DNA of 64,000 bases from a virus (Duplodnaviria > Caudoviricetes). Both the position numbers and the translations under genes were made by a program. Positions 12,571 to 64,000 of this stretch are shown here, piece by piece. The DNA is taken from IMG/VR virus record IMGVR_UViG_3300014204_000120, positions 1 through 64,000 of that record. One strand, 5' to 3'. Below the pieces are notes generated by a model. It did not search any database. It saw nothing but the letters and a program-made list of their open reading frames with translations, and was not told where the DNA came from. Positions within the stretch are counted from its first letter, which is position 1; every line of letters starts with the position of its first letter.

Positions 12571-12582
12571 GGAATAATTGAT

Positions 12583-33789: not shown

Positions 33790-35154
33790 ATGGCAATTGA
33801 AACTTTTGATTTAAGTGCCACAAAAATCAACGTATCATACTGTATAGACGAAGAAACAAAAGAAAGACAACTATATCTTAATGGTCTTCGAGATATACCT
33901 AGATTAAAAGAAATTCAAGAAATAACTAGTGCTTCGTGCGCAATTGTTGCTTTTGGCCCTTCTTTAAATGATACTTGGAATGAAATCTATAAGTTTAAAA
34001 ATATTATAACTGGTTCTGGTTCACATAAGTTTTTATTGGATAAAGGAGTCAACCCGGATAGCTTTGATAACTGGTGGCATATGGAATGTGACCCCAGAGA
34101 TCATAAAATAAAACTTTTAGGTAAGCCCCATCCAAAAATACAATATCTTATAGCTGATACATGTCACCCAAAGTTGTTTGATGTACTTAAAGATTATAAT
34201 GTAAAGATGTGGCACATATACGATTCAAAATTAATACAAACAATGCCAGATTATTATAAAAGAGGAGAAGTTTGTGTAATAGGTGGAAGTAATGTTGGTA
34301 TAAGACAATTAACAATGGCAAGAGTTTTAGGATTTATAAATATACATGTGTTAGGATTAGATTTTAGTTTTCCAGAACCAGAAGAAGGAAAATTACCACA
34401 ACAACACGCGGCGTTTCATCCAAAGTGTAATGCTAATATTGCTAAAATTGTTATTGAAGATAAAACATATTTTACAACACAAGTAATGATTCATTATGCA
34501 AGAGAGTTTTGGCACGAAGTACAATTGTTACCTGATATAAAAGTAGTTTTACATGGTAATGGAATGTTACAACATTGGGCACAGACTAAAGCTCAAGAAC
34601 CAAAACAAAGGGTAAGTATGAAATCTGTTGCCTTGGTTATACCAGAAGTTATAAGTAATGATTATGTTGAATTGAATAGACAATTACATGAAAGTTCTCA
34701 TGAGTATGGTACATTTAGTTTTCAACATGCTAAAACAGTTATCAAACTTAAAGAAAGTTTAAATACATCTTCAGTACTTGATTATGGTTGTGGTAAGGGA
34801 ACATTAGGTCAAAGACTTCCTTTTCCAATATGGGAATATGATCCTGCTATTCCTGGTAAAGATAAGGCACCAAGACCGGCAGATTTAGTTACTTGTTTTG
34901 ATGTATTAGAGCATATTGAACCAGAATATTTAGATAATGTTTTAAAAGATTTAGCAAGATGTGTTTTAAAGATAGGTTATTTTACTATTAATATGGCACC
35001 TTCATCCAAAACTTTAGCTGATGGAAGGAACGCTCATTTGATTCAAAAAGATGAAGCTTGGTGGAAAGAAAAGTTATCTGAATATTTTTTACTTGTTAAT
35101 AATTCTATAATTAAAAAAGGACCACAATTATTTGTAATAGCAGCGCCTAAATAG
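33790..35154 (+). CDS. DUF115/Maf-like domain fused to a class I SAM methyltransferase
   Basis: CAIVAFGPSL, GGSNVG...ARVLGF..IHVLGLDFSF (DUF115/MptE-like); VLDYGCGKG and DVLEHIEP (methyltransferase). Confidence 0.75.
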   Translation: MAIETFDLSATKINVSYCIDEETKERQLYLNGLRDIPRLKEIQEITSASCAIVAFGPSLNDTWNEIYKFKNIITGSGSHKFLLDKGVNPDSFDNWWHMECDPRDHKIKLLGKPHPKIQYLIADTCHPKLFDVLKDYNVKMWHIYDSKLIQTMPDYYKRGEVCVIGGSNVGIRQLTMARVLGFINIHVLGLDFSFPEPEEGKLPQQHAAFHPKCNANIAKIVIEDKTYFTTQVMIHYAREFWHEVQLLPDIKVVLHGNGMLQHWAQTKAQEPKQRVSMKSVALVIPEVISNDYVELNRQLHESSHEYGTFSFQHAKTVIKLKESLNTSSVLDYGCGKGTLGQRLPFPIWEYDPAIPGKDKAPRPADLVTCFDVLEHIEPEYLDNVLKDLARCVLKIGYFTINMAPSSKTLADGRNAHLIQKDEAWWKEKLSEYFLLVNNSIIKKGPQLFVIAAPK

Positions 35155-35164
35155 GAGGATTGAA

Positions 35165-36118
35165 ATGTTTAAAATTACTGAAAGAATTGATAAGGTTACG
35201 AATGTTGATTCAGATCGATTAAAGGAAGTTCTTCCTGCACCTAAATCAGTTAAAATAGAATTGACTAGTAGGTGTAATTATCGTTGTGCTTTTTGTTCAC
35301 ATCAGACTAAAAAAAGTACATCAGATATGGATTTGAATTTGTTTAAACGTATTACTAAAGAAATGCAAGAAGCTGGTGTAACTGAAATAGGTTTATTTTA
35401 TTTGGGTGAATCATTTACTAATCCAACATTATTAGTTAATGCTATTAAATATCTTAAACAGGATTTGAATTTTCCTTATACTTTTTTAACATCTAATGCT
35501 TCTTTAGCCAATCCAGAACAAGTTGAAGCATGTATGGCGGCTGGATTAGATAGTTTAAAATGGTCTTGTAATACAGCTAATCCAGAACAGTTTAAAAAGG
35601 TAGTACAAGTTTCAGAAAAAATGTTTCATAAGTCACTGAATAATATTAAATCTGCGTATGAGATTAGAAAAGCAAAAGGATATAAAACCGGATTATTTGC
35701 ATCATCTATTCGTTATGATGATGAACAACATGAAACTATGATGCAAATGTTAAATGAAAAAGTTATTCCTTATGTTGATGAACACTATTGGTTACCTTTA
35801 TATACGATGGGTAGTTTATCAACAGTTCGTAGAGAAGCAGATTTAGGTTATAGACCAACTGCTGGTAATCAAGGTAGACAGGATGCTTTAGTCAATCCTC
35901 TTCCTTGTTGGACAGTATTTACCGCAAGTCATGTTATTGCTAATGGTAAAGTATCAGCTTGTTGTTTTGATGCTAATGAAAATTGGATTATGGGCGATTT
36001 AACTAAACAATCATTTATGGATGTTTGGAACTCAGAAGAATATCAAAAGCTTAGAAAAGCTCATATTGCTAAAAATATTAAAGGAACGGTTTGTGAAAAT
36101 TGCGTGGCTTATAAATAA
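35165..36118 (+). CDS. Radical SAM enzyme with SPASM/twitch domain
   Basis: IELTSRCNYRCAFC (CxxxCxxC); PCW...G.V..CC.D...GDL...VWN...CENC. Confidence 0.9.
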   Translation: MFKITERIDKVTNVDSDRLKEVLPAPKSVKIELTSRCNYRCAFCSHQTKKSTSDMDLNLFKRITKEMQEAGVTEIGLFYLGESFTNPTLLVNAIKYLKQDLNFPYTFLTSNASLANPEQVEACMAAGLDSLKWSCNTANPEQFKKVVQVSEKMFHKSLNNIKSAYEIRKAKGYKTGLFASSIRYDDEQHETMMQMLNEKVIPYVDEHYWLPLYTMGSLSTVRREADLGYRPTAGNQGRQDALVNPLPCWTVFTASHVIANGKVSACCFDANENWIMGDLTKQSFMDVWNSEEYQKLRKAHIAKNIKGTVCENCVAYK

Positions 36119-39199: not shown

Positions 39200-39295
39200 T
39201 AATGGTAGAAAGTTGGGACAGCCACAAATGGTTTTCTAACCCCAATTTAGAATTACCTTCTTTCTACTATTAAAAAACCTTATTGGGAGGTTTTG
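39200..39295 (+). ncRNA. Putative structured cis-regulatory RNA leader, copy 2
   Basis: Same architecture and core as 17874-17966; begins right at late promoter 39194-39201. Confidence 0.65.
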
Positions 39296-40432
39296 ATGTG
39301 TAAAAAATTAACTAAAGAAGAATTTATTGAACGATCAAAAAAAATTCACGGTAATAAATACGATTATAGTTTAGTAGATTATATTAATAATAATACTAAA
39401 GTTAAAATTATTTGTTTAAAATGTAATAAAATATTTGAACAAACACCAAATAATCATTTAAATGGTAAGGGTTGTAAAAAATGTAGAAAAACTAAGCACA
39501 AAATGTCAACAATTGAATTTATTGCAAGAGTAAAAGAGATTTGGGGTGATGTTTATGATTATAATTTGGTAGAATATAATAATTTAAACGATAATATTAA
39601 AATTATATGTAAGATTCATGGAGTGTTTAAACAAAAACCTAAAGATCATCTTAGAGGTTGCGGTTGTAGACAATGTGGTATAGATAAAACTAGAAAATTA
39701 AAAATAATGTCATGGGATGATGTTTTAACAAAGTTTAAAAAAATTTATGGTAATGAATATGATTATAGTGAATCTGTGTATCTTTCAATGAATTATCCGA
39801 TTGCTATAATTTGTAAAAATCATGGAATTTTTTATATGTTGCCTAAATATCATTTACATAATGGTGGATGTCCAAAATGCTCAAGACAAAAAATGATAAT
39901 TACAAAAACCAAAAAAATAGAAAATGTTTTATTAGATTTTCGAAATGTTCATGGTGATAATTATGATTATAGTCAGGTTGAATATATTAATAGTAGAACT
40001 AAAATTAAAATTATATGTAAAAAACACGGGATATTTGAACAAACACCAAACAATCATTTAAGAGGTGAATGTTGTCCTAAATGTAAAATATCATTAGGAG
40101 AAAATAAAATATTAATTTGGTTAAATAAAAATAAAATAAAATTTGAACAGCAGAAAGAATTTGATGGTTGTCAATGTAAATTTAATTTAAAATTTGATTT
40201 TTATTTATCAGATTATAATATCTGTATTGAATATGATGGAGGATTACATTTTAAACCTGTTGAATATTTTGGTGGTGAAGAAGCACACGAAAAAACTAAA
40301 ATGAGAGATCAAATAAAAAATGATTATTGTAAAAATAATAATATTAAACTATTTAGGATACCATATTGGAAATTTAATGATATAAATTATATTTTAAAGA
40401 ATATAATAGAAGAAGCAAAAAACTTTTTTTGA
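39296..40432 (+). CDS. Homing-endonuclease-like protein (four YDYS.V.Y...KIIC..HG.F.Q.P..HL.G.GC..C repeats plus Vsr-like domain), related to 11668-12570
   Basis: Repeats visible; FDFYL.DYN.CIEYDG.LHF...YFGG...KTKMRD shared with 11668. Confidence 0.78.
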   Translation: MCKKLTKEEFIERSKKIHGNKYDYSLVDYINNNTKVKIICLKCNKIFEQTPNNHLNGKGCKKCRKTKHKMSTIEFIARVKEIWGDVYDYNLVEYNNLNDNIKIICKIHGVFKQKPKDHLRGCGCRQCGIDKTRKLKIMSWDDVLTKFKKIYGNEYDYSESVYLSMNYPIAIICKNHGIFYMLPKYHLHNGGCPKCSRQKMIITKTKKIENVLLDFRNVHGDNYDYSQVEYINSRTKIKIICKKHGIFEQTPNNHLRGECCPKCKISLGENKILIWLNKNKIKFEQQKEFDGCQCKFNLKFDFYLSDYNICIEYDGGLHFKPVEYFGGEEAHEKTKMRDQIKNDYCKNNNIKLFRIPYWKFNDINYILKNIIEEAKNFF

Positions 40433-42917: not shown

Positions 42918-43117
42918 AATATATCCTTTCAATAAATGTTAATATTAATATAACATTTTCTTTTTAAGAAGTTGTTTAATATTTCAAAAATATAAATACT
43001 TAGTGAGTTTATTCAAAGATATTTTAAATAATTCTTAGTTTAAGACTTTATAGAATATAATCATATCACATTGTTAAATCCGTTATAAATACGTATATAG
43101 TTGTATAGGAGAAGTAA

Positions 43118-45493
43118 ATGTCAAAGTATTATGTAAAAATTAGTAATGCGTATGTATCAACAGGATTAGGAAGCACGTTTTCCCCGTTTACGTTTACACA
43201 GTTTGTAGACAGGTTATCATCAACTACGGTTTCTGATGAGTATTATGTTTCTGGAACGAGGATAATCAACACAGATTTATTAATGACAATTAGTGGTGCT
43301 ACATGTGTAATCAGTGCTTGGGGAGAGGATCCATATTACATTGTAGGTAATAGTGCTGATATATATTTTGCTATTGGGTCAAACAGTTTAAACATATATG
43401 ATATGATATTGGGATGCACATTATCAACAACGACTGAAGTTTTATTTGATTCGACTGAGGATGAAGCTAGGTCACAGAATTTAGTTATAGATAATTGTTA
43501 TATAAATTTAACTACGTATAATATTGGTTTTGAGGATTTTAATAGTGTAATAGTACGGAATTCTAATTTAGTTGCAGATAAAATAATAGGTCAGAACATA
43601 GTTAGTATGTCGTTTGTTAATGATATATTTGATGTTAGTGATATAGATTGTACAGAAGATAATGATGTTGATGTATTCACTTTGGATAATTGTGCGTTTA
43701 CAAGTGCTACGGCTGGATTTACAACGGATGATACAGATTGGACTAATGTACAGGAATTATGGGCAAGACCAGATGATATATTTAATGCAAGTGTTTCAGC
43801 AATTTCAGCTGATAGTTTTCATTATTTAAGTGCTGATTTTGGAACAATTACAATAAGTGGAGATACTGATTATACAAACACATGGTATAATGGAAGACGA
43901 GATGGTATAGGAAGTTTATATTTTCCAGCATTAAGTGGTGTAAGTGTTTCAGCATCGTTAGTATCAGCTGCACCAAATACAACCATTAGTTTTGTTTTGA
44001 GTGGTAATAATCCTTTTACAGTTTTTAGTGCAACGAGTGCTACATATTATTTTGATGATGAAAATACGTCCGCGGTAAATACAAATAGTACATTAGCGCA
44101 TATATATTCGGCTACAGATTATTATAATACTAGTGCTGTTATGATTTCTAAAAATAGTTGGTATACAGTTACAACACCAGTCCAAGTTATATTAGTAGGA
44201 GCATTTACAGTTATAATAAAGGTATATGATGCTTTTGGAAATGATAAGACTGGTGGAGTATTAAGACCTTTATCATATGTATCAGTTTCAGCAAGTGCTA
44301 ATGGATATGATGGTATAGATAGTTATGTATGGGATTTTGGAGATGCTACTGGTAGTGTTCCAGTTTCAGGTATAACTAATCCTGATAATACATATTATAT
44401 TGGATTAGGAATGAAGACTATATCTTTAACTGCTCATGCTGTAGAAGAAACATTCTCTGCAACAGCAAATACAACATTAGGAATATCAGCTTTAACAAGT
44501 GCTTATTATGTTAATATAACTTCAGCTTATGATGCTAATACTGGTAATATAGGAACATTAGCTGATCCATATAATTGGGATGAATTTAAAACTAGAGTTG
44601 AATCGTTTGTAAGTGCAGATTATAGTGATACATATTATTTAAGTGGAAGTAGAAAATTAACACAACCTACAACAGGTCAAAATGTATTAGCTATAAATTC
44701 GTTGAAAAATTTAACTATTGACTGTTGGGAGAATTCAGCAACGCATGGAGCTCCTTGGTTGCTTGAAATAGAAGACTGGACAACGACAAATGCTAATTCG
44801 ATATTATCGGCAGTCGGAACAACATTAAAGAATGGTATAATTTATAATAAGAGATATATTTCTCCTGGTTATGGTGGAACATTAAAGATAACTAATGTAT
44901 ATGATATGTTTATAGTTTATCAAGGTACATATGCTGGAATAGAAATAGACCCTTGGAACTTTGTATTATATTGTGGTGGTACATGTGGTGTAGTAATGCC
45001 AAGTGCGGATTCAAATATTATAGGAAGTACTTTATATTTAAGTGGAAATGGATTTACTGATAATTTTGTTGTAGGAGATTATTCAGAAATATATTTACCA
45101 GCGACTCAACAAACAGGATATAATTTAGATTTAATAGATTCTGTTTTTGTTAATTTAGATTTAGAAGATTCTAATTATTTCAGTGCTGCTGATGTATATA
45201 TTAGAAATAGTACTTTTAATAGAGCTTCTAGTGCTATTGAAGCAGATTTTGATATATCAGCTAATGATGATAGTCAGTTTGGTTGGTCTCCACCCGTTAG
45301 TTATCCGTTTACACCAAGTCATAGGTTATATGATAAAAATATAGAGTATGTGATATTAAAGAAGGGAGACTTAGTACCGTTTAGTGATATTGATATGCCG
45401 CCTAATCCGGGCTATGGAGCTTCGGCATATTCTGAATATGATACTGGCTTGTGGGGTTATGCTAGAAATCAATATAATACAAGTGCGAGTTAA
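43118..45493 (+). CDS. Virion structural protein with two beta-helix-like modules and PKD-like domains
   Basis: YYV...G.G....P(F/Y)...F module twice; SYVWDFGD PKD motif; late promoter upstream. Confidence 0.65.
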   Translation: MSKYYVKISNAYVSTGLGSTFSPFTFTQFVDRLSSTTVSDEYYVSGTRIINTDLLMTISGATCVISAWGEDPYYIVGNSADIYFAIGSNSLNIYDMILGCTLSTTTEVLFDSTEDEARSQNLVIDNCYINLTTYNIGFEDFNSVIVRNSNLVADKIIGQNIVSMSFVNDIFDVSDIDCTEDNDVDVFTLDNCAFTSATAGFTTDDTDWTNVQELWARPDDIFNASVSAISADSFHYLSADFGTITISGDTDYTNTWYNGRRDGIGSLYFPALSGVSVSASLVSAAPNTTISFVLSGNNPFTVFSATSATYYFDDENTSAVNTNSTLAHIYSATDYYNTSAVMISKNSWYTVTTPVQVILVGAFTVIIKVYDAFGNDKTGGVLRPLSYVSVSASANGYDGIDSYVWDFGDATGSVPVSGITNPDNTYYIGLGMKTISLTAHAVEETFSATANTTLGISALTSAYYVNITSAYDANTGNIGTLADPYNWDEFKTRVESFVSADYSDTYYLSGSRKLTQPTTGQNVLAINSLKNLTIDCWENSATHGAPWLLEIEDWTTTNANSILSAVGTTLKNGIIYNKRYISPGYGGTLKITNVYDMFIVYQGTYAGIEIDPWNFVLYCGGTCGVVMPSADSNIIGSTLYLSGNGFTDNFVVGDYSEIYLPATQQTGYNLDLIDSVFVNLDLEDSNYFSAADVYIRNSTFNRASSAIEADFDISANDDSQFGWSPPVSYPFTPSHRLYDKNIEYVILKKGDLVPFSDIDMPPNPGYGASAYSEYDTGLWGYARNQYNTSAS

Positions 45494-45496
45494 TAT

Positions 45497-46069
45497 ATGA
45501 ATTATTTAATGTTATGGAAAGGTAAAAATCCAACTAATAGATTAGATTATATTAAATCAGTTTTAGATAAAGTTACGGATGAAGATACTATAACAATTGT
45601 ATCAGATAACAAGTTTCTACGTAATAAGAAGATACATTGGAAAAGCATAAATACTGTAGAAGAAGATTTATATAAAGACCATCCTTATTTAAAAAGTATC
45701 ATATTACAGGCAAGTTCGGTTAGATGGTCTGATATATTAAGATTTTATTTACTAGGGCAAATAACTAATACTTTATATGTAGATACTGATATAGAGTTAA
45801 TACAGAGACCGATATTTGATGATTTAGAGCATCCATATTTAATAAAGTATAATCGTAGATATTGGGATTTGAGTATGATGTATAACGGTAATAATACTGG
45901 TTTTTTTAAGGATTTTTTAAAATTGTTAGAGCCAATAATACAAAGAAGACCTGAAAGATTAAATGAATATGTATATTTTTTTACTTATCTAAATAGGTGG
46001 ATAAGTAAGAATAAGGTAAATGAAATAGATTCTAAGATATATAATCATTATGAATTAAGAGGAAAATAA
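45497..46069 (+). CDS. Glycosyltransferase, DXD / GT32-like
   Basis: WSDILRFYLL...LYVDTDIEL motif. Confidence 0.75.
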   Translation: MNYLMLWKGKNPTNRLDYIKSVLDKVTDEDTITIVSDNKFLRNKKIHWKSINTVEEDLYKDHPYLKSIILQASSVRWSDILRFYLLGQITNTLYVDTDIELIQRPIFDDLEHPYLIKYNRRYWDLSMMYNGNNTGFFKDFLKLLEPIIQRRPERLNEYVYFFTYLNRWISKNKVNEIDSKIYNHYELRGK

Positions 46070-48985
46070 ATGGCTGATACTTTTTATGTAGATTTTGATT
46101 TAAGTACGAGTGGAAACATTGGTACTTCTGGTGATCCTTTTAACTGGGATGATATGGTTTATTGTTTGGAAAATAGTATTTCAGCTGATAGTAATTTTTA
46201 TTGTAAAGGTAGTCAAGTTGGTGGGGGTGTTGCAGTAGATAATGCTGGCGGTGAATTAGTAAAGTTATTAGGTTGGGGTGATGAAGTATGGAGATTAAGT
46301 GGCACTAATTGGAGTTTTAATATAGTTGATGCTATTTATTTTGATAATGCTATACTTTATGATGTTGGTATGAATGCTATTGGTAATATTAGTAATTGTT
46401 TTATTTTTAACGGATTATTTATTATTTTATATGATAATAGCAAGAATACTTTTGTTTTAACTAAAACATTATCTGATATCTCTGAATATGATTATGGTTG
46501 TTTAAATGCATGTGTTTATGTAGAGAATAGTGAAACATTAATAGATAATACACATGGAGGTAATAGTGCCGTTGATTGTATTACAAACAGTTTAACTTTT
46601 TCTGGGGCATTTTCAGATCATAGTGATGGTGGTGGAAACATACTAAATGCTGATATGGGATATATACCTCATTTTACTGAAACTAATTTAGAAAAGTTTA
46701 ATTTGGGATGGGGAGAATATGGTGTTGGTTTAACATGGGCAGAACCATTTTCAGGATATTATATTGATTTTAGTGAATCTACAAGCGGTCACGCAGGAAC
46801 AATATTTGATCCTTTTAATTATGATGATTTTATAGATTCACTATCAGGAACTAATAGAACTTATAAAGCTAAAGGTTCATATGAATCACCATCAAATGTT
46901 AGTATATTGATTACTTCAGCTGTTAGTATTAGCGCATGGGATGTATATAATTATGGACCTTGGAGATTAAAATCTACATATGCTGTTATTGATATTAGTA
47001 ATTCAGCATCAGATATAAACGATTGTATTTTAGCAGGAGATTATACTGGTTATATTGCTATTCCAAATTGTAATAATGTATATATTATTGATGCATGGTC
47101 TGTAGAATTGAATGGAAATGAAATGACAAATGTAGTTTTTGGTCCAGAATATATGTTTATATTTGGTAGTATAAGTAATACTAATTTTATATTTAATAAT
47201 TGTCTTTTTGCTTTATCAGGAAGACCTACTGATGGATATGGTCAACTTGTACCTAATAACGGAAGTATAGTAAATAATTCGGCAACATTCAATGATTGTT
47301 ATACAACTGAAGATGAATTATCTGGTTTATGTAGAACTGCAGACGTAACAACTATTGTTGATAATGGAATAAATTATAGTGTTTCAGCTAATAATACACC
47401 AAATCCTCCTAACTGGGAAGATATTAATTTAGCAAACTTTAATGCAATTGCTGAAAATCAAATTGTTTCGTGGGCTACTAATAGAACATTTTATTTTAAT
47501 ATTAATAATGTTTATTCAGCAACTGATGGTTCTGGATTAACAACAGATCCTTGGTCCATAGAACAGTTTCAAGAATTTATGCGTTATACATATGGTGCTA
47601 ATGGAGTAAGCGGTCAAACTTTTGTTAGAGATTATGATACTTTAAAAGTTAAAGGTTCATATGAAGCTCCTTCAGATGTGATATTTTTACCATATTGGTT
47701 AAATGATGAATATCGGTCAAGCGCTGTTACAATAGAAGCATGGGAACCAACTATTAATGGACATTGGAAGGTTAGACCTATAAACGCATTGGATGTATCA
47801 GATTTTAGCATATATGATATTAATCAAGGTAGACCTGTAAGTTTAATCATTAAAGATGGAGTAATTCAAAATTTATATGTTAAAACACATGCCGGCCCTA
47901 TATCATTAAACGACTATGCAACAACATTACCGCCTTATGGATTAGTTGATTATCAATTTAAGAATTGTATATTAAGTGGAGATACTTGGTTTGATAATAC
48001 TATTAATTCTGCTACTTCAGCAAATAATTATGATATGTTTAATGGTTGTACTTTTGTTGATGGAACTTTCTATCTTAAAGACCAAATTTATACAACTTGT
48101 GCCGGATATACTGGTATAATAGAGGATTCAACAGTTTTTGAAAAATTAGAATTTAATGATTGCGTGGCTTTGAATACATTATTTGATTTAACAGATATTT
48201 CTACTTCTGGATTATATATGCCGCCTAAAGATTTAATAACATTTAATTATTGTGAATTTTCTGGAACATCGGCACAGAGCATAGAATATAGTGCGGCATA
48301 TGATGATGTAACATTAAGTGCATGTAATTTTGAAATAACTCCTTCGGTTACTTTTCCATTATATGATGATATAACAGTAAATAATCAAGACTCATTAGAT
48401 TATAGATTATATGGTTTAACAAAAACTAAAGAAACGCGTGAAGATACATGGATAGCGGATGATTATAATGAAGGTTATATGGATTCTTCACGTAAAGCAG
48501 CCGGATCATTTTCATTTGCTCATATTAGTTATTTAGGTCATATTGGTGCATTTTATTTCGGGCCTGTTAGTGAAACGATAAATGTAGGAACTTTAGAAAT
48601 ATCAGCGGTTTTATTACAACCAACAATTTCAACAGTTAATGCAATTTCAGCAACAGTAGTTCCGACACAATTAACAGTAAGATATACTTTATTACAACCA
48701 ACAATATATGCTACACAAGATTTAGAAATTGATTTTGTAGGGGTTCCGGTTTCTGGTCCTGTTCCATTAATAGTTGAATTTACTGCATATATTAATTTTT
48801 CTGCGGAGTTAAAGAATAAATATAAGGTAAAAGAGTATAGATGGTGCTTCAACTACGACTACGATAATAATACTTGTTTAGAAGATTGGGTTATTACTAC
48901 AGCAAATCCAACGACTCATATATATAAAGGCCATGCGGGTCAAAAATTTAGTGTTAAAGCTTGTGTAACACTTGAATTATTATAA
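46070..48985 (+). CDS. Virion structural protein with three beta-helix-like modules and a C-terminal PKD-like domain
   Basis: FYVD..GTSGDPFN, YYID..GTIFDPFN, FYFN..GLTTDPWS; P.SGPVPL.V.FTA...NPTTHIY. Confidence 0.65.
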   Translation: MADTFYVDFDLSTSGNIGTSGDPFNWDDMVYCLENSISADSNFYCKGSQVGGGVAVDNAGGELVKLLGWGDEVWRLSGTNWSFNIVDAIYFDNAILYDVGMNAIGNISNCFIFNGLFIILYDNSKNTFVLTKTLSDISEYDYGCLNACVYVENSETLIDNTHGGNSAVDCITNSLTFSGAFSDHSDGGGNILNADMGYIPHFTETNLEKFNLGWGEYGVGLTWAEPFSGYYIDFSESTSGHAGTIFDPFNYDDFIDSLSGTNRTYKAKGSYESPSNVSILITSAVSISAWDVYNYGPWRLKSTYAVIDISNSASDINDCILAGDYTGYIAIPNCNNVYIIDAWSVELNGNEMTNVVFGPEYMFIFGSISNTNFIFNNCLFALSGRPTDGYGQLVPNNGSIVNNSATFNDCYTTEDELSGLCRTADVTTIVDNGINYSVSANNTPNPPNWEDINLANFNAIAENQIVSWATNRTFYFNINNVYSATDGSGLTTDPWSIEQFQEFMRYTYGANGVSGQTFVRDYDTLKVKGSYEAPSDVIFLPYWLNDEYRSSAVTIEAWEPTINGHWKVRPINALDVSDFSIYDINQGRPVSLIIKDGVIQNLYVKTHAGPISLNDYATTLPPYGLVDYQFKNCILSGDTWFDNTINSATSANNYDMFNGCTFVDGTFYLKDQIYTTCAGYTGIIEDSTVFEKLEFNDCVALNTLFDLTDISTSGLYMPPKDLITFNYCEFSGTSAQSIEYSAAYDDVTLSACNFEITPSVTFPLYDDITVNNQDSLDYRLYGLTKTKETREDTWIADDYNEGYMDSSRKAAGSFSFAHISYLGHIGAFYFGPVSETINVGTLEISAVLLQPTISTVNAISATVVPTQLTVRYTLLQPTIYATQDLEIDFVGVPVSGPVPLIVEFTAYINFSAELKNKYKVKEYRWCFNYDYDNNTCLEDWVITTANPTTHIYKGHAGQKFSVKACVTLELL

Positions 48986-48995
48986 GGAAAATGTA

Positions 48996-51539
48996 ATGTC
49001 AACTTCTGCAATTTATGTAGACATATCAAATGATTTAGATGCAACGCCTGGAACAGGTACCTCTGCATCACCATTTAATTACGTTCAATGTCAAGACCAT
49101 TATTATGATGTGAGTGGTTTTGATCTACATATAATTTATTATATGAAAGGTTTGCGACAAATAACACAAGACGAAGATTTGACTAATTATGGTTCAACTT
49201 CTGCTAATCCAATTTCAGCATCATTTCTACCTTGGGATATGTCAACGTATGGTCCTTGGATTATAAGTGCTGTTAATGGAACAGGAGAATATGCCACACT
49301 GCCTTATTGGAATTTTGAAATTTATAACGAATATGATGATGGAACTTCACAATTAGTTGTCGATGGTTTAGTTGTCCACGTTTATGATTTTACATTTTGG
49401 ACTGTAAATAATACAGCACCTGAGATGAGTGGATTTCAACACGTTTTAAAAAATTCTTATATTTATGTTAGTCATGCTGGGAAAATTTATCTAGACGAAT
49501 TAGCTATAAATCCAGTTAAAATTCTAGGATGTACTTTTAAAATTAGATATAATAAAACCATGTATATATATCAAACGGCACCTCTTGATTTTGTTGATTG
49601 TTTTTTTGATGAGTTAAGTCAATATGGTTTATATTATTATAGTGTTGATGTATCTGCTGTTAGTTTTAGTGGTTGTTATTTTGTTAATGATTTATCGGCG
49701 ACTGTTGCAACGGATTATCAGCTTTCATCACTTAATTTAGACGATGATTGCGTAACTTCATTTGAATTAAGTCAATCAATATCAGGATTTCAGAATATAA
49801 CAGATACAAATTATACAGATTATGATTATACGAATTATGGTTTATCAGCTATTACTGATACAGATATTATAAATCGTTGGACAACATTAGACTATAACGA
49901 CGGATTTTTTAGTTCATCTAGACAATCCGTAGGAGCTTTTTATTTTCATATGCCACCTTTTAACGTTAATGTATTATATACAGTTTATCCAAAACTAAGT
50001 TTTGTTAATAATGATTTTATATTTTCTGCTAATTTAGAGCCAACTGGTACATTTGATCCAACTTGGACATCAGCATATACTGTGTTATATGGAGATGGTC
50101 AATATTTTACATCAACATCAGCTATAGAAGTAACAAGATCATATGCTAATAGAGGTAACTATGTTTCGATTCATAATTATAAAATAACCAGTGCAACAGG
50201 CGAAACATACTATAATAATACAAGCGCTATTGGTAATATTAAAGTTAATCCTATACCAGAAATAGCTTTTACAGGATATTCATATGTTTTATCAGGTCTT
50301 AGTTTTTATGATGTTAAAGGTGGATATTATATAACTGATACTGTTGTTAGTGCTAATTGGGATTTCGGTGATGGGAGTTTATCTAGTACTACTGATTTAG
50401 ATGCAATATTAATTCATAGTTATAGTGCTGTTGGTAATTATACAGTATCAGTATCGGCATATGATGTTAGTGGTAATGTTGGTGTTGGTAGTGATGTTGT
50501 TGGTATATTAGAAGGGGCTAATTGTGTATCTAAGGAAGATTATATAACTTTATGCGGTCCTGGTTCAAGTTTAGCGCGATATGGTAATAGTAGATTTATT
50601 GATTTAAAAACTTATTTACCTGATTATTTAAAAGATGGTGAAGTAGAAGAATTTATAGAAGTCTTTGAAGACTTTTTAAACGAAATGTATGATGGTCAAG
50701 ATGGATGGATAAATAGTGCTACTTCAGAATTACCCATAACAGAAACGTGGAATTCAAATAGTGCAACTTCAGGAGGTCCAACTAGAGACTTTACATACGA
50801 TATAAGTGGTACTACTGTTGATACTGAAGCTACAGATGCAGAACAAATAATAGTTGATTGGCCTGTAAATAGTATGTCAGCTTCTCCTAAAATATCAATA
50901 TTAGAAAAAGTATATAGATTAACAGAATTGCATGATCCTGATTTAATAGATTTGGAATATATACAATACTTTGCTAAAAACTTAGGATATAACGTAAATG
51001 TATATCGTGATGAATTAGGCATTAGCGGAACGTATGCTTCATCTACATCAGCAAATTCAGCATGTACTGATAATGAAACTAATAGATATATACGATTTGT
51101 AGTACAAAATTTGCCAACGTGGTATAAAATTAAAACAACAAGAAATGCTATAAAAGTTATGCTTTATTCTTTTGGATTAGTTGGAGATATTTTGGAATAC
51201 TATACTTCAAACTATAAATCATATCCCGAAGGTCAATGGAAACTTGACTCTGAAACAGATTTAAGAAATATTCCTGATAACTGGTATCCTACACCGCATT
51301 TTGCTCTTTTAGTAGATTTAGATACAAGTACTGATATATCATTTGATTTATCACGTAGAGATAAAGTTATTAGAGCTATTGAATCCATTAGACCAATTAA
51401 TACTGTTTTTAAAAGATTAGTAGGATATGCTAAAAGAACATTTGAATTAACTACAGCTGCTTGGATTAGAATGACTAGATATACTGATATTAGATCTGAT
51501 GGTTATAGTAATAGCTGGTGGGATGGAACGTGGTATTAA
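48996..51539 (+). CDS. Baseplate wedge gp7/P2 gpI-like domain fused to beta-helix-like and PKD modules
   Basis: IYVD..GTSASPFN; NWDFGDG PKD; DPDLIDLEYIQYFAKNLGY...WYKIKTT..AI...L..FG...IRPINT. Confidence 0.7.
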   Translation: MSTSAIYVDISNDLDATPGTGTSASPFNYVQCQDHYYDVSGFDLHIIYYMKGLRQITQDEDLTNYGSTSANPISASFLPWDMSTYGPWIISAVNGTGEYATLPYWNFEIYNEYDDGTSQLVVDGLVVHVYDFTFWTVNNTAPEMSGFQHVLKNSYIYVSHAGKIYLDELAINPVKILGCTFKIRYNKTMYIYQTAPLDFVDCFFDELSQYGLYYYSVDVSAVSFSGCYFVNDLSATVATDYQLSSLNLDDDCVTSFELSQSISGFQNITDTNYTDYDYTNYGLSAITDTDIINRWTTLDYNDGFFSSSRQSVGAFYFHMPPFNVNVLYTVYPKLSFVNNDFIFSANLEPTGTFDPTWTSAYTVLYGDGQYFTSTSAIEVTRSYANRGNYVSIHNYKITSATGETYYNNTSAIGNIKVNPIPEIAFTGYSYVLSGLSFYDVKGGYYITDTVVSANWDFGDGSLSSTTDLDAILIHSYSAVGNYTVSVSAYDVSGNVGVGSDVVGILEGANCVSKEDYITLCGPGSSLARYGNSRFIDLKTYLPDYLKDGEVEEFIEVFEDFLNEMYDGQDGWINSATSELPITETWNSNSATSGGPTRDFTYDISGTTVDTEATDAEQIIVDWPVNSMSASPKISILEKVYRLTELHDPDLIDLEYIQYFAKNLGYNVNVYRDELGISGTYASSTSANSACTDNETNRYIRFVVQNLPTWYKIKTTRNAIKVMLYSFGLVGDILEYYTSNYKSYPEGQWKLDSETDLRNIPDNWYPTPHFALLVDLDTSTDISFDLSRRDKVIRAIESIRPINTVFKRLVGYAKRTFELTTAAWIRMTRYTDIRSDGYSNSWWDGTWY

Positions 51540-51578
51540 TATAAATATTAATATAATAAGAATTTAAGGAGTTTTATA

Positions 51579-53912
51579 ATGGCTAATGTTATGCTTACAA
51601 GAGCTGGTTTGCAATATGTACTATCAGCACATGATGATGGTGTTTATGTAGATGTTAGATACTTTATACCAGTATATGATGATAGAATAGACCCAACACT
51701 TAGAACTACAGGTGCGCTTTCTTCTATAGCTCAAATTGCGGATGAAACTGCAACTGCACCTTATGGTGAAAAAATATGGAATATATCAGGTTATTCGTTA
51801 TCTGATACGGATGATTATGTTATTTCTGCTGTAGCTTTTACTAGTGATAGATTAGTAGATTCATATCAAAAAGTTCAAGTCAATACGAATTTATATGGTA
51901 TTGTACCATTATCTACACAAATTAGCGGAATGGCTTTTGCTGTATCTGCTGGTTCAATGGCAGGATATTATGATTGGGATGTGACTGGTGGAGGAGTTGT
52001 AACGGGAAATAATGATAGACCTACTAGCGCAGATGATGATTATTTTGTTGTTACTGATTATTATCCAGTATATGATTCTGCTGCTGAAGAAAGATTACGT
52101 GGTGTATTTAAAGCAGAAATTAATAAGAGAATGGGTAAATTTAAGTTTAATAAAATAGCTATGTATGCAGTACAGGTTGATACTGATGGTGTGGTTTTGG
52201 GTAGTTGCTTCTTTGGTGAGGCTTATTTAGATACTCCAGTTGTTAAAACAGAATTAGCAACTGATGGTTTTGATAACTTTATATTTGATATTCAGATAGA
52301 TTTAAGCGGAACTTCTGCTACATGGAATGATGTGTTCTTTTCAAGTTCGGCGGATTATTGGAGTCATAGCCCGGGTGGATTGTATTATTCCGGTCGTATA
52401 GGTGTAGGTAATTTTACGGGTGATGTTAGAGAAATTAGTGCCACTGCACATTTTAAGAAATCAAGAGATGTTAGTGGAACAGTTGATAATGATATACCTA
52501 CATTAAGATTAGATTATGACGCTTCTAGATTTGTATCAATGGATGTTGTAAGTGGCGGTTATTTTGTTTCTGGTACAAATGGTGGAGACTTAGTTATTCA
52601 AGTTTCTGATTGGTCTACTTATTGTGGTGAAACTATTGCAATAAGACCTAAAGTAGCTAGAACTATAGCTTTAGGAACTACAACTTATCCATATGAGAGA
52701 GTAGCATTAAATGATAATAGATTACATGCTATTGATGTAAATAATGGCCAGGTTAAAATAGGCAAACTTAACGGTTATTCAGAATCAGATTATTATGGTA
52801 TTCCATCAATATATTTAAGTGATTTAGCAGTAGAAATTACTGCAACATCAGACGGATCAACTGGTTCTGATATAAACGGTGCGTATATTGGTGGGGATTT
52901 ATTTAGAAAGTATCAAAATCTATTTATTTTCACAACATTTTATTGTAATACTGGAAATGAATATTATGATAGAGATATTGCTATAGTTGCTGGTTTAGAC
53001 GCAAGTGGAACATATAGTGCAGTTGGAACTCCTTCAGCGAAGATTAATCACATGTCTTTAACCAGACAACTTTTAAATAGTCAGAATTTTAGTTCTAATG
53101 TTGCTAGCGCTGCTGAAATTCATTTAGCTGCTAAAGGCGGTATTAAACTACATGGTGTTTTAGAATTAGAAAATATTAGAAATAGTTATGTTACAGATAG
53201 TGTAACTTATACACCTAATAATGCAATGATAATATCTAAGCAAAATAATTTGTTATTAGTAGCAGGATTAAATTCATTAGTAGATTATGATACATTAAAC
53301 ACATATTTTGCAACAAGATCTGAGTATATGAGTTCTTGGTTGACATCTACTAGTCAATTATTATTAATGGGTAAGACTATTTCTACTATTGGTAATATTA
53401 AACCGTGGATTACTAATACTGATGATATTGGGTCTTTATCACTTAAATATAAAGGTTTATATGTTGAAAATGCAAGAGTAACAGCTTTAACAGTAAACAC
53501 TATTGGAGTAACTCAACTAGGAGCTTCTGAAATAACAGCAACAAATTTGACAGCTACAAATCTTGTTACAACAAACGGTTTTAGAATGTTATCAACTGAT
53601 ACACCACTAAAATATTATGTAAAAAACGTAATGTTAGGTACTTTAGTTGCTAATACTAATACTTTAGTGGATACTATAACCGGATTAGGTTCAATGAATA
53701 TTTTTGGATATAATATCACAATTTTAGATGGTGTTAAGTATTTTCCTCCAGGTTATGAAACATCAGATCATCCATTAATATACTCATATTCTACTTTTAT
53801 TAATCAGGCTGTTGGAGGAGAAACAACATATATAAATATAATTCCAAAAGCTACAACTTTTTCTAATTGTCCTTGTTATATTGTTATATTTTATCAAACC
53901 GCTACAGGATAA
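51579..53912 (+). CDS. Baseplate-attached fibre/receptor-binding protein
   Basis: N-terminal LTRAGL and G.FKFNKIAMYA resemble fibre base domains; DIGS..LKY..LY fibre motif. Confidence 0.55.
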   Translation: MANVMLTRAGLQYVLSAHDDGVYVDVRYFIPVYDDRIDPTLRTTGALSSIAQIADETATAPYGEKIWNISGYSLSDTDDYVISAVAFTSDRLVDSYQKVQVNTNLYGIVPLSTQISGMAFAVSAGSMAGYYDWDVTGGGVVTGNNDRPTSADDDYFVVTDYYPVYDSAAEERLRGVFKAEINKRMGKFKFNKIAMYAVQVDTDGVVLGSCFFGEAYLDTPVVKTELATDGFDNFIFDIQIDLSGTSATWNDVFFSSSADYWSHSPGGLYYSGRIGVGNFTGDVREISATAHFKKSRDVSGTVDNDIPTLRLDYDASRFVSMDVVSGGYFVSGTNGGDLVIQVSDWSTYCGETIAIRPKVARTIALGTTTYPYERVALNDNRLHAIDVNNGQVKIGKLNGYSESDYYGIPSIYLSDLAVEITATSDGSTGSDINGAYIGGDLFRKYQNLFIFTTFYCNTGNEYYDRDIAIVAGLDASGTYSAVGTPSAKINHMSLTRQLLNSQNFSSNVASAAEIHLAAKGGIKLHGVLELENIRNSYVTDSVTYTPNNAMIISKQNNLLLVAGLNSLVDYDTLNTYFATRSEYMSSWLTSTSQLLLMGKTISTIGNIKPWITNTDDIGSLSLKYKGLYVENARVTALTVNTIGVTQLGASEITATNLTATNLVTTNGFRMLSTDTPLKYYVKNVMLGTLVANTNTLVDTITGLGSMNIFGYNITILDGVKYFPPGYETSDHPLIYSYSTFINQAVGGETTYINIIPKATTFSNCPCYIVIFYQTATG

Positions 53913-53928: not shown

Positions 53929-54450
53929 ATGAAAACAAAGTTGACGCGTGAAAGGATTTTTCAGATTTGGTTTGTTTTAACTAATCTAAAAGTTCCAGAA
54001 AATGAGATGTTGGATAAAAGGTTTGACTATGCTAAAAATAGAACCTTAGATAGTTTAACACCAGAAGTAACTGAGATTGTTAAAGCAAGAAAGTCTGGTA
54101 TTCCTAAATATGATGAGTTTGATATAAAACGAAAAGAAATATTGATGAAGTATGCTAGTAAAGACGAACAAGGTAATCCAGTTATTAATGGTAATCAATT
54201 TTCTATTAATGGTGAAAATTTGGAAGAAGCTAATAAATCATTAAATGAATTAATAGAAACATATAAAGAAGCTTTAGATGAAAGACAAAAAGAGATTGAT
54301 ATTTATAACGAGATTATTAATGAAGAAATAGAAATAGATATTACTCCAGTTTCATTTATTGCATTACCAACGTTTGTTAAAGAAGAGTTTACTAAGGTTA
54401 TTAGACCAATGATTAAAGAAACAGATGAAGAAATTGAGGGATTATTATAA
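53929..54450 (+). CDS. Putative fibre-associated chaperone, paralogue of 33238-33774
   Basis: EFDIKR.EI..KYA.KDEQGNPVINGN. Confidence 0.55.
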   Translation: MKTKLTRERIFQIWFVLTNLKVPENEMLDKRFDYAKNRTLDSLTPEVTEIVKARKSGIPKYDEFDIKRKEILMKYASKDEQGNPVINGNQFSINGENLEEANKSLNELIETYKEALDERQKEIDIYNEIINEEIEIDITPVSFIALPTFVKEEFTKVIRPMIKETDEEIEGLL

Positions 54451-57543: not shown

Positions 57544-57933
57544 ATGCATTTTAAAGACTTTTATTTATTACAAGAAAAGAAGTTTTTAACAATATCTAAT
57601 CAAAAAATTGAAATAGATATTGAAAACTTAGACTTATATAGTACAAGTCATTCAGATCAACAAATGAATCGACTTGATAATTATAAACGAATGAATATTA
57701 CAGAAGATGAAATTATTAAAGACTTAGAAAAAGCATTACCTAAAATAATGAATGATTATGCTAACGGTGAAATAGAAAATGAAGCTGAATTTTTAGTTAA
57801 GAATAAAGAAACTAAGTTAAACATTATTGGTGCTCTTAAAATGCGTAAAGGCAAGGACTTTATATCTATCATTACAGTTATGAGAAAACCTGGTTATATT
57901 CCTAAAGATGGTACGTATACTTATGAGATATAA
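57544..57933 (+). CDS. Putative internal protein
   Basis: MHFKDFYLLQE start; IITVMRK C-terminal motif. Confidence 0.6.
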   Translation: MHFKDFYLLQEKKFLTISNQKIEIDIENLDLYSTSHSDQQMNRLDNYKRMNITEDEIIKDLEKALPKIMNDYANGEIENEAEFLVKNKETKLNIIGALKMRKGKDFISIITVMRKPGYIPKDGTYTYEI

Positions 57934-57934
57934 T

Positions 57935-58318
57935 ATGAAATTTACTGAATATTATAATTTAAATGAATCTATTGTTATAAAAGCATATCATGGTAGTCGT
58001 GAGAATAAAATTAAAGATTTTAATGTTAGAGATAGTGAAGCACTTAGAGTTTCGGGTATATACTTTTCAAAAAATAAAGAAGAAGCTAAGAAATATACTA
58101 AAATTAAAGGAATACAAGACGAAAATAGAATTACAACAGTAGAAATAACATTTAAAAATCCGGCAGATAGAGAAGTTTTAGATAAGTTAGGTTATCGTTT
58201 AAATGGAATGGAAATGAAAAATAAATTAATTTCAATGGGATATGATGGCGTTATTGATGATTTTATGGATGAAATAGTTGTATTTAATAAAAATCAAATT
58301 AAGGTATTGGATGTATAA
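57935..58318 (+). CDS. Putative internal protein, ADP-ribosyltransferase-like
   Basis: MKFTEYYNLNE start (ATG 57935); AYHGS...GIYFS....A..Y...GYDGVI...EIVVF..NQIK (H-Y-E ART pattern). Confidence 0.65.
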   Translation: MKFTEYYNLNESIVIKAYHGSRENKIKDFNVRDSEALRVSGIYFSKNKEEAKKYTKIKGIQDENRITTVEITFKNPADREVLDKLGYRLNGMEMKNKLISMGYDGVIDDFMDEIVVFNKNQIKVLDV

Positions 58319-62086: not shown

Positions 62087-62115
62087 TTGACATTCACTAT
62101 AGAAAATGTTATTTT
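62087..62115 (+). promoter_or_regulatory. sigma70-type promoter for the glycosyltransferase operon
   Basis: TTGACA-17 nt-(TG)nTATTTT. Confidence 0.55.
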
Positions 62116-62137
62116 TGAATTGAAAGGATTTTATATA

Positions 62138-62938
62138 ATGATCAAAATTATAAGTGGTTGGTCAAACATAGGTGGTTCAACAATAGCTTTTATTAATTTA
62201 ACCAATGCTTTAAACGAAGCCGGTTATGAAGCTATGTTTTATGGACCACATCTATGGCACTTAAATCAATGTAAATCTGCACAATATAATCGTGGAAATA
62301 AGTTATCAGTTAATAAAGATGATACTTTAATAATTCATTTTATAAATTCCTTTAATAGTAGACCGCCTGTTAAAGGATTTTTCTTTTCTAGTCACGAGCA
62401 AGATATTTTTCCAATAAAGAACATTAATTATTCTATTTATGATAAGATACATTTCGTTAGTGAACATCAAAAACAGTATCATTTAGTAGAACATCCTTAT
62501 TTTATCATTCCAAATATATTAAATGATTTGAAACCTAATACTAAATCTAATAAGAAAATTGGCGGGATTATAGGTTCAATTGATAGAAATAAAAGGGTCG
62601 ATGAATCTATTAAAAGGGCTTTAGCAGACGGATGTGAACAAGTTTTAATTTATGGTGTTTTATCAGATCCTTGGTGTTGGCAAACTCAGATAGCTCCTTT
62701 AATCGATGGTAATAAAGTTATATATAAAGGAATTGAAGACGATAAACAAAAAATGTATGATTCTGTAACAGACGTTTATCATTCATCTATACTAGAAACG
62801 TGGGGTTATATTAAAGGAGAATGTAAATTAACAGGTACTAATTTTCACGGTAATAATTCAACTAACGGATACTGGGAACTAAGTAAAGACGAAATTGTTA
62901 AAAAATGGATAAAGGAATTAGAATATGATACAAAATAA
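62138..62938 (+). CDS. Glycosyltransferase, GT-B (GT4-like)
   Basis: GGST.A...L...L...GYE, FVSEHQK, IIPN, GSI...K, HSS..ETWG; ATG 62138 after AAAGGA. Confidence 0.75.
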   Translation: MIKIISGWSNIGGSTIAFINLTNALNEAGYEAMFYGPHLWHLNQCKSAQYNRGNKLSVNKDDTLIIHFINSFNSRPPVKGFFFSSHEQDIFPIKNINYSIYDKIHFVSEHQKQYHLVEHPYFIIPNILNDLKPNTKSNKKIGGIIGSIDRNKRVDESIKRALADGCEQVLIYGVLSDPWCWQTQIAPLIDGNKVIYKGIEDDKQKMYDSVTDVYHSSILETWGYIKGECKLTGTNFHGNNSTNGYWELSKDEIVKKWIKELEYDTK

Positions 62939-63689
62939 TTTTAAAATAATTATACCTTCATATAATACTGCGCCGTGGATCCAAAAATGTATATGGTCAT
63001 TGCATAATCAAGCATATACTAATTGGAAATCTGTTATAATAGATGATGCTTCAACTGATAAAACATTAGAATATATTTTAAGTTTTATGAAAGATATTCC
63101 AGAGGCAGACAATTATAAAAGAAAGCAATATAGATTATTACAGAGAAATGTTAATGTTGGTGCTTTAGAAAATATAGTATATGGTATTAACTTAATATGT
63201 GATAATGATGAAGATATAATAGTTTTGTTAGATGGAGATGATTCATTATCTGCGCATGATGTATTAGAATATTTAAATGAAGTTTATCAAAATCAAAATA
63301 TATGGCTGACTTATGGTCAGTATATTCATATGTCTGATAATAAAACTCGTGGTATGAATAAACCTTTAACAATGAGTACTAGAGAATATAGAGATGGTAA
63401 AGAATATTGGTGTACATCTCATTTAAGAACATTTAAATATAAGGTATGGAAACAGTTAAAAGATGTTGATTTAAGAATGTCAAATGGAAAGTATTATCCT
63501 ATGGCGTGGGATTTAGCTATAATGTATCCTTTAGTTGAAATGTGTGGTAATAGAAGAATTCAGTTTATTAATAAGATAATGTATATTTATAATGATACGA
63601 ATCCTATAAGTGATGGTAAAAAAAATCCAATATATCAAATTAGTTTAGCCAGAGAAATTAAAAACAAACCAAAATATCCAGAATTATGA
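62925..63689 (+). CDS. Glycosyltransferase family 2
   Basis: IIIPSYN....I.KC..S..NQ...W..VIIDDASTD and LLDGDD. Confidence 0.9.
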   Translation: MIQNNFKIIIPSYNTAPWIQKCIWSLHNQAYTNWKSVIIDDASTDKTLEYILSFMKDIPEADNYKRKQYRLLQRNVNVGALENIVYGINLICDNDEDIIVLLDGDDSLSAHDVLEYLNEVYQNQNIWLTYGQYIHMSDNKTRGMNKPLTMSTREYRDGKEYWCTSHLRTFKYKVWKQLKDVDLRMSNGKYYPMAWDLAIMYPLVEMCGNRRIQFINKIMYIYNDTNPISDGKKNPIYQISLAREIKNKPKYPEL

Positions 63690-64000
63690 AAGTAGTAATT
63701 AATCGTACTGGTAAACCATTAAGATTTACTGAGTATAAGAAAGAAATACCGTGGGATGGTAAGCGATATATAGTTCCTGATAATATTGCTGAAAAATATC
63801 GAGGTTATTTAGAAGTTATTGATATTGATAAATCAAATGAAATAGATGGTTTAAAACATGAAATTAGAGAAGCTACTAAAAAATTAGGTATATTAACAGA
63901 CGAAAATAAAAACAAACAACATTTATTTGATAATTTAAAGAAGAATATTGTTGTACCTAAAATAGATTTTTTATATTCGTTTCATTTTAATGAAGATCAA
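63686..64000 (+). CDS. ORF truncated by the window end
   Basis: ATGA overlap with the GT2 stop; open to position 64000 (MKVVINRTGKP...). Confidence 0.65.
   Translation, partial: MKVVINRTGKPLRFTEYKKEIPWDGKRYIVPDNIAEKYRGYLEVIDIDKSNEIDGLKHEIREATKKLGILTDENKNKQHLFDNLKKNIVVPKIDFLYSFHFNEDQ

Follow-up and report, generated by a model that had tools for sequence, protein, structure and literature searches.

A Ser-centred tripeptide in the outer tail proteins of an uncultured T4-like phage: a putative acceptor tag for serine O-glycosylation

The first 64 kb of IMG/VR virus record IMGVR_UViG_3300014204_000120 encode outer tail proteins in which serine is followed by alanine or glycine dozens of times, which raises the question of whether these serines are read by a modifying enzyme. 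The stretch analyzed (64,000 nucleotides, referred to below as the window) belongs to a 137.8-kb record (G000) that is ~53% complete and has a GC content of 29%. The source phage is a deep-branching T4-like myovirus: the nearest isolate for its gp23-type capsid protein is a cyanophage, at only 34% identity, and the T4-like markers gp15, gp25, gp6 and RegA are also present. A preliminary description of this DNA proposed that the x-Ser-(Ala/Gly) motif directs an O-glycan coat over the whole particle and pointed to a glycosyltransferase gene lying between two of the richest motif genes. The four motif genes (43118–53912), located downstream of gp6 and a Cas12f cassette, are the following.

43118–45493, plus strand: 791-residue baseplate-distal/fibre protein of two modules with a PKD-like middle, the richest motif carrier
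46070–48985, plus strand: 971-residue fibre protein with three repeated YYVD..G.G....PF modules
48996–51539, plus strand: fibre/baseplate protein of ~847 residues with a PKD domain (PKD_4, E 2e-9)
51579–53912, plus strand: 777-residue outer protein, weakly enriched in the motif

Besides the PKD domain, no relatives of these four proteins were found in Pfam, PHROGs or PDB sequence searches. The third gene likely starts at the ATG at 48996, as the preliminary description had it, position 48972 being an upstream TTG.

Each protein was scored against shuffles of its own sequence, and observed/expected counts and z values were obtained. The dipeptide S-[AG] was found 36 times in the product of 43118–45493 (12.7 expected, z 7.6), 32 times in that of 46070–48985 (11.4 expected, z 6.8) and 30 times in that of 48972–51539 (9.8 expected, z 7.3), with a weaker excess in the product of 51579–53912 (19/10.6, z 3.0). 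Since the excess stands against within-protein shuffles, which preserve composition, the enrichment survives composition correction and a composition artefact is excluded; the abundance first noted by eye in these proteins was thus borne out. In the first three proteins pooled, Ser-Ala (66/15.7, z 13.7) ranked first among the 400 dipeptides and Ser-Gly was also in excess (32/17.8, z 3.7), and no enrichment was observed for Ala-Ser (11/16), Thr-Ala (9/15) or Thr-Gly. When the middle position of [LIVFT]-x-[AG] was varied, Ser alone was enriched (77/11.7, z 21) and Thr was depleted, and the enrichment of the residue following [LIVFT]-Ser was limited to Ala (47/5.4) and Gly (30/6.3). Position −1 was occupied by T, V, L, I, F or N and never by D, E, K or R. 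The motif is the tripeptide [T/V/L/I/F]-Ser-[Ala/Gly], and the outer tail proteins carry hydrophobic/Thr-Ser-Ala/Gly four to six times above chance.

All six Ser codons (AGT, TCA, TCT, AGC, TCG and TCC) are used at the motif in proportion, so the signal lies at the protein level and is not a DNA word. This use of all Ser codon families, together with the persistence of the excess across genomic GC contents of 29–43% in the relatives described below, excludes a DNA-level word or codon effect. No period was found in the inter-site spacing of the three main proteins, which rules out a periodic structural repeat in them. A general trait of phage fibres is ruled out by T4 gp5–gp37 and the giant structural proteins of cyanophage S-CAM9, which showed no excess (absolute z values of at most 2.0). 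The general O-glycosylation sequon of Bacteroidota, D-(S/T)-(A/I/L/V/M/T), was also rejected: Asp at −1 was found 0 times for 2.7 expected, Thr is depleted, and only Ala and Gly occur in excess at +1.

In the remainder of the virion S-[AG] was at chance in the portal, terminase, scaffold and internal-protein candidates, as in all non-structural open reading frames (ORFs), in agreement with the rarity reported earlier for terminase, scaffold and internal proteins. The capsid protein (z 1.3), sheath (z 0.4), gp6 (z 0.7) and other structural proteins were not enriched as whole proteins. The motif is not virion-wide, because capsid, sheath, gp6, portal and terminase lack whole-protein enrichment, and the proposed coat over the whole particle has to be given up: outside gp15 and the baseplate-distal/fibre proteins there is no enrichment, only a handful of conserved sites in the neck protein and in one capsid loop. 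Four further features of the window are concerned.

9862–10821, plus strand: gp15 tail sheath stabiliser (PF16724, E 2.5e-36)
4099–4222, plus strand: variable loop stretch with 4 to 5 S-[AG] sites in the gp23-type major capsid protein (gene 3697–5058)
7334–8125, plus strand: neck protein that aligns with T4 gp14, with three clustered sites at residues ~65–90
28349–33172, plus strand: 1607-residue Ser/Ala-rich repeat fibre with a C-terminal Peptidase_S74 intramolecular chaperone domain

In gp15 (13/4.1, z 4.9) the motif-bearing segments are insertions at residues ~33–42 and 70–85 and a 70-residue C-terminal tail with ~10 motifs, all of them missing from the gp15 of T4 and S-CAM9. Closer relatives of G000 have more of these segments, and the motif in gp15 arrives with clade-specific insertions. 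Four tail sites (F-x-T-S-G, T-S-[AG]-G, S-A-[IV]-P and [FY]-x-x-S-G) recur in ~45 IMG/VR relatives, down to 40% identity. The earlier suggestion that the motif clusters in loop insertions of conserved proteins holds in those that lent themselves to a test. The capsid cluster (4 to 5 sites in ~40 residues) lies within the most variable stretch of the protein, where Ser plus a small residue is kept in four relatives while the flanks vary, and the three neck sites are likewise conserved in relatives. Conservation of the five capsid sites was not significant (p 0.11), and the local clusters in capsid and neck, reached in 15/1000 and 3/1000 shuffles, respectively, were not significant after multiple testing among 181 ORFs. 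The 1607-residue fibre consists of ~13 copies of a unit like ISNRISADNALSNLISSTSAT, which contains ISAD and TSAT, and it is not independent evidence because its excess stems from this tandem repeat unit. Its local GC content is 39%, as compared with ~30% elsewhere in the window.

Five related records were compared over their fibre regions; two of them are complete, with terminal repeats (G001, 264 kb, and G002, 254 kb). The genes 3′ of gp6 in the relatives showed the same excess (z 5 to 8), with fibre proteins at z 8 in the two complete genomes, and in genome-wide scans of G001, G002 and the more distant G006 and G009 again a handful of structural ORFs stood out. The GC contents of G000, G001 and G002 are 29%, 43% and 33.5%, respectively, despite structural proteins that are 60–84% identical. 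The C-terminal half of the 48996 protein is kept in all relatives, residues 300–850 matching at 45–57% identity. Homologues of the 43118 protein are found in five relatives (36–44% identity) and have 29–47 motif sites each. In this family the conservation of motif Ser was 0.53 versus 0.30 for other Ser (Mann–Whitney p 7e-4), and among 110 motif columns 69 were private to one sequence and only 4 universal. Motif density is held in the 43118 family while the positions turn over. In gp15 the motif is weak in the distant G006 (z 2.3) and G009 (z 1.2). S-G-rich small proteins of these two genomes were set aside as unrelated, their excess being explained by tandem repeats. Those of G009 form a paralogous family of nine ORFs of 250–380 residues (e.g., 12547–13305 and 164380–165516) that share an N-terminal domain and contain 6 to 14 tandem repeats of 18 residues (TINTLSGGYVRSYDTSKL), and those of G006 (92052–93104 and 103143–103715) are made of NSGN(R/K)NSG and WESGxW repeats.

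Statistics, conservation and gene context thus support a motif that resembles a sequon, is specific for Ser and independent of fold, and is carried by outer virion proteins. We favour the reading that [T/V/L/I/F]-Ser-[Ala/Gly] is a putative acceptor tag for serine O-glycosylation, to which we assign a probability of about 45%. The motif occurs in beta-helix-like modules, PKD-like domains, the repeat fibre, the gp15 tail, the capsid loop and the neck loop, and it sits on parts predicted to be at the surface: baseplate-distal fibres, the gp15 tail and insertions, and the loops of capsid and neck. An enzyme tag fits better than a packing motif because only Ser is used, the +1 residue is small, no charge is found at −1, the fold does not matter, add-on loops are involved and density is held while positions drift. 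We infer that the serine is modified, and likewise which enzyme would read the motif and what the glycan would be. The proteins would be modified in the cytoplasm, before or during assembly, by soluble phage enzymes produced late in the infection cycle; the initiating transferase would require a small residue after Ser and an uncharged residue before it.

The chief alternative is a lineage-specific structural or evolutionary habit of the fibre and loop modules, spread by module duplication and recombination with no modification at all, possibly as a strand-edge or turn signature with the hydrophobic residue in, Ser out and the small residue in. The alternation of hydrophobic, Ser and small residues suits a beta-strand, many sites are positionally conserved in structural elements (e.g., YYLSGTR and PKD-like strands), tandem fibre repeats account for some of the excess elsewhere, and the motif persists in relatives without each specific transferase. 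A packing rule, however, would allow Thr, Asn or Asp at an exposed position, whereas only Ser is enriched and Thr is depleted. The occurrence of the motif across unrelated folds and within segments inserted into conserved proteins, the turnover of positions at constant density and the lack of excess in the very large fibre proteins of T4 and S-CAM9 also speak against such a habit, which we consider rather unlikely.

If the motif is an acceptor tag, an enzyme has to read it, and the gene named in the preliminary description was the first candidate.

45497–46069, plus strand: 190-residue glycosyltransferase of the GT-A fold with a DxD motif (D96/D98), assigned from an AlphaFold2 (AF2) model and Foldseek

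This gene begins 4 nt past the stop of the 43118 gene, and its stop abuts the start of the 46070 gene. Its product had no match in Pfam (PF04488 at its gathering score included) or PHROGs, a sequence profile against the PDB returned nothing, and a scan of viral contigs gave no relatives. An exhaustive HMMER search yielded a family of ~190-residue proteins with 62 representatives; D96 and D98 were the only invariant columns in 55 homologues, of which 15 touched PF04488 weakly (best E 5.5e-4), and the language-model neighbours of the protein were Gly_transf_sug and NleB/SseK clusters. AF2 gave a predicted local distance difference test (pLDDT) score of 95 with the 55-sequence alignment and of 36 with a four-sequence alignment. 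Foldseek returned 224 PDB matches for the model at E <= 1e-3, and all of the top matches listed were glycosyltransferases; the best were the protein-glycosylating toxins/effectors YeGT (8ovt), PaToxG (4mix), SetA and LtpM, then alpha3GalT and LARGE1. On this model the 45497 protein is a genuine DxD GT-A glycosyltransferase, as had been proposed. A protein acceptor for it is not established, because the glycan-building GT-A enzymes alpha3GalT and LARGE1 score almost equally.

A counterpart 35% identical is located at the equivalent position in G004, and no member of the family was found in G001, G002, G003 or G005. The 45497 protein cannot be the required writer, because the two complete relatives without the family, G001 and G002, keep the motif with fibres at z 8; its candidacy as the essential, motif-defining enzyme is thereby excluded, and genome comparison indicates an accessory transferase.

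The glycosylation machinery of G000 far exceeds this single transferase, and the following genes in the window belong to it or adjoin it.

33790–35154, plus strand: MptE-like/DUF115 (Maf-type) domain fused to an S-adenosylmethionine (SAM) methyltransferase, 454 residues (PF01973, 51 bits for a cut-off of 34.6; Methyltransf_23)
35165–36118, plus strand: radical SAM/SPASM enzyme adjoining the Maf-like gene
62087–62938, plus strand: GT-B (GT4-like) glycosyltransferase candidate, 283 residues (Atlas structure, template modelling (TM) score 0.79–0.85 to GT4 clusters; no Pfam match)
62925–63689, plus strand: GT2 glycosyltransferase, partner of the GT4-like gene (PF00535, 73.6 bits)
63686–64000, plus strand: start of a soluble glycan island that continues to ~78.6 kb of the genome, beyond the end of the window

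The candidate initiator would be the GT4-like/GT2 pair. The GT4-like gene is 61–68% identical in G001–G004 and its partner 55–60% identical in G001–G003 and 29% in G004, and this is the only pair common to all genomes covering the locus (G000 to G004). In the G004 orthologue of the GT4-like gene (G004:C1:61267-62073) one in-frame TGA lies within the match, which could be a sequencing error, a pseudogene or recoding. The pair is missing from G006 (91% complete) and G009, in which no PF00535 or PF13692 match was found; it is thus present in all five strong-motif genomes covering the locus and not in the two weak-motif relatives.

Lineage-specific enzymes, namely the 45497 GT-A protein, the Maf-like proteins and a nonulosonic-acid island, would extend or vary the glycan. 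The Maf-like fusion gene at 33790–35154 lies in the baseplate operon, directly 3′ of the repeat fibre and its chaperone-like gene, and is missing in five relatives. The G000 gene run 62087–78632 encodes glycosyltransferases of the GT-B/GT4-like, GT2, GT7C/GT2-like and GT10-like types, two epimerases, three methyltransferases (FkbM included), three radical SAM enzymes (B12- and SPASM-type) and a class III aminotransferase. It also contains NeuB (PF03102, 198 bits) and a PseF-like cytidylyltransferase (102.6 bits), both under the equivalog cut-offs, and a 253-residue Cst-II/Maf-like transferase (71550–72311; PF01973, 55.7 bits for a cut-off of 34.6), whose family profile matches Cst-II at 8e-5 and Maf 5mu5 at 5e-3. 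To judge from these genes, the island resembles a heavily tailored nonulosonic-acid pathway in a phage. In a test for hydrophobic 19-residue segments, 2 of 28 ORFs exceeded the threshold of 1.6 (71550–72311 at 1.82 and 78698–79138 at 1.75), and the segment of the former was read as buried, not as a membrane anchor, because it coincides with the conserved core of the enzyme. A Pfam scan of the island ORFs, excluding four small ones and those in the flanks, detected neither a flippase nor a polymerase. The predicted phage-encoded glycosyltransferases (GT-A 45497, GT2, GT4-like, GT7C-like and GT10-like) have no clear membrane segments, and the toolkit is, as predicted from the genes, soluble and partly embedded in the fibre operon. 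Maf-like, cytidylyltransferase and NeuB genes are also found in G001. The complete G002 has no MptE-like gene, NeuB or cytidylyltransferase and has instead four GT2 genes and one GT1 gene; since it keeps the motif, Maf-like/NeuB enzymes are ruled out as a universal writer.

Several observations weigh against an acceptor tag written by the phage. No single transferase co-varies cleanly with the motif: the 45497 gene, both Maf-like genes and NeuB are all missing from G002. The co-occurrence of the GT4-like/GT2 pair with the motif amounts to a single evolutionary event, because one clade is compared with its outgroups. Some S-A-rich fibres, largely tandem repeats, are present in distant relatives without detectable GT2 or GT4. 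No S-A-rich protein was found within 10 kb of distant GT4-like homologues in the glycan islands of other phages, loci that are uninformative because the fibre genes of those phages are out of range. Glycan islands of this kind have, in addition, been interpreted as modifying the host surface.

A different serine modification or a host reader (phosphorylation, acylation, a radical-SAM/SPASM change, or hijacked host glycosylation of the flagellin type) is improbable. The baseplate operon does contain a radical SAM/SPASM gene and a methyltransferase fusion, and a host writer would explain why none of the phage transferases is found in every motif carrier. Among the ~55 ORFs scanned against Pfam there was no candidate for a kinase or an acyltransferase, the radical SAM/SPASM gene at 35165 has only a weak counterpart in G001 (24% identity) and is missing from G002, and the host writer has no direct support.

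It is more improbable still that the transferases and island serve the glycosylation of DNA or of the host envelope and lie beside the motif by coincidence: T4-like phages classically glycosylate their DNA, the GT4-like/GT2 pair is just 3′ of clamp-loader genes and similar cyanophage islands are usually annotated as lipopolysaccharide or cell-wall modification, but the island enzymes have no clear membrane segments and no flippase or polymerase among the ORFs scanned, the fibre operon houses one of the glycosyltransferase genes, the baseplate operon one of the Maf-like genes, and on this reading the motif would go unexplained. As to DNA, both known routes to glycosylated pyrimidines begin with a ThyA-family enzyme (PMC13326640), and these routes lack their first enzyme here because no ThyA-family hydroxymethylase or hydroxylase was found in five genomes, two of them complete.

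Taken in its full form, the acceptor-tag reading would have a clade of uncultured T4-like phages write a three-residue code (an uncharged or hydrophobic residue, Ser, then Ala or Gly) into exposed parts of fibres, neck and capsid, its own soluble enzymes O-glycosylating the serines in the cytoplasm with swappable glycans, here including a heavily tailored nonulosonic acid; this wider statement is possible, if doubtful. To our knowledge, only a few mycobacteriophages have been shown to have glycosylated particles, and neither a tripeptide tag nor nonulosonic acids on the virions of tailed phages came up in a literature search. If the reading is true, the clade would provide the first example, actinobacteriophages aside, of a tailed phage whose glycan coat is directed by a sequon, and a target would be at hand for the soluble glycan islands of large phages, which have long been a puzzle. 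Should the tripeptide mark sites in an abundant environmental T4-like lineage, virion glycosylation would become predictable from sequence. A glycan coat on fibres would affect host recognition, protease resistance and recognition of the particle. Tag and writer could serve as a cytoplasmic glyco-engineering tool with a defined sequon, which is absent in Maf-type enzymes (PMC11339370). If the motif is unmodified, it would still represent unusually clean lineage-specific selection on a dipeptide, for which a structural explanation would be needed.

Other features of the window are of interest for the arrangement of these genes.

43084–43091, plus strand: T4-type late promoter word TATAAATA, 34 nt 5′ of the 43118 gene

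The total of this word in the genome does not exceed the composition prediction, and only its placement ahead of ORF starts is suggestive. Two ORFs of ~175 residues (53929–54450 and 33238–33774), each 3′ of a fibre gene and both assigned to phrog_1401, which carries no functional annotation, are likely paralogues that act in fibre assembly or as chaperones. A DUF4379 treble-clef zinc finger is encoded by a 379-residue ORF (39293–40432) between gp6 and the Cas12f cassette; this ORF may specify a nuclease of the homing type that inserted into the baseplate operon. A 136-residue ORF (57908–58318), next to a small Hcp-like ORF, encodes an ART-PolyVal ADP-ribosyltransferase domain, its score of 48 bits exceeding the cut-off.

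The proposed system was compared with those known. The 45497 protein shares the GT-A fold and DxD motif with the toxins YeGT, PaToxG, Legionella SetA and LtpM (TM 0.62–0.67, query-normalised), from which it differs in that identity is only 10–18% and it is a minimal 190-residue domain. In Gram-positive cocci the cytoplasmic GT-B enzyme GtfA/GtfB (GT4) initiates O-glycans at the serines of Ser-Ala/Val/Glu dipeptide repeats, and the glycans are lengthened by a variable set of glycosyltransferases. These serine-rich-repeat adhesins present a long low-complexity repeat, whereas the phage has single tripeptides scattered in folded domains; the phage GT4-like protein (283 residues) is about half the size of GtfA.

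The oligosaccharyltransferase PglL of Neisseria and Burkholderia has a strong preference for Ser over Thr and for Ala-flanked Ser, its optimal motif being WPAAASAG (PMC8423747), and in both preferences it offers a precedent for the phage motif. PglL, however, sits in the membrane, acts in the periplasm with lipid-linked glycans and lacks a rigid sequon, whereas the phage enzymes scanned are soluble and phage assembly is cytoplasmic; no PglL/Wzy_C-type match was found among the ORFs scanned.

A further precedent for the chemistry is found in the Maf O-glycosyltransferases of flagellin, which link nonulosonic acids activated with cytidine monophosphate, of the Pse/Leg type, to exposed Ser/Thr with hydrophobic flanks in the cytoplasm (PMC11339370; PDB 5mu5). 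NeuB, a PseF-like cytidylyltransferase and two MptE/DUF115-domain proteins are shared by the phage. The residues around Maf sites are hydrophobic, and no sequon is involved (PMC11339370). Maf proteins have ~600 residues with flagellin-binding domains, in contrast to phage proteins of 253 and 454 residues (the latter a methyltransferase fusion); the full Maf architecture with N- and C-terminal substrate-binding domains was not found, a faint PseD match having E 2e-4 for a cut-off of 670 bits. The phage Maf-like genes are, moreover, missing from the complete relative (G002) that keeps the motif.

Virion glycosylation by phage enzymes is documented for the mycobacteriophages Che8, Corndog and Myrna (Freeman et al. 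2023, as summarized in PMC12619734). There, according to that summary, the structural proteins of the phage are presumably decorated by soluble glycosyltransferases that it encodes itself, and the acceptors are add-on C-terminal extensions, which recalls the gp15 tail. The targets are the C-termini of siphovirus capsid and tail-tube proteins, and no defined tripeptide is given in the summary. In the T4-like myovirus described here, the predicted targets are instead fibres, baseplate and gp15, marked by a sharp Ser-(Ala/Gly) tag and accompanied by a putative nonulosonic-acid pathway.

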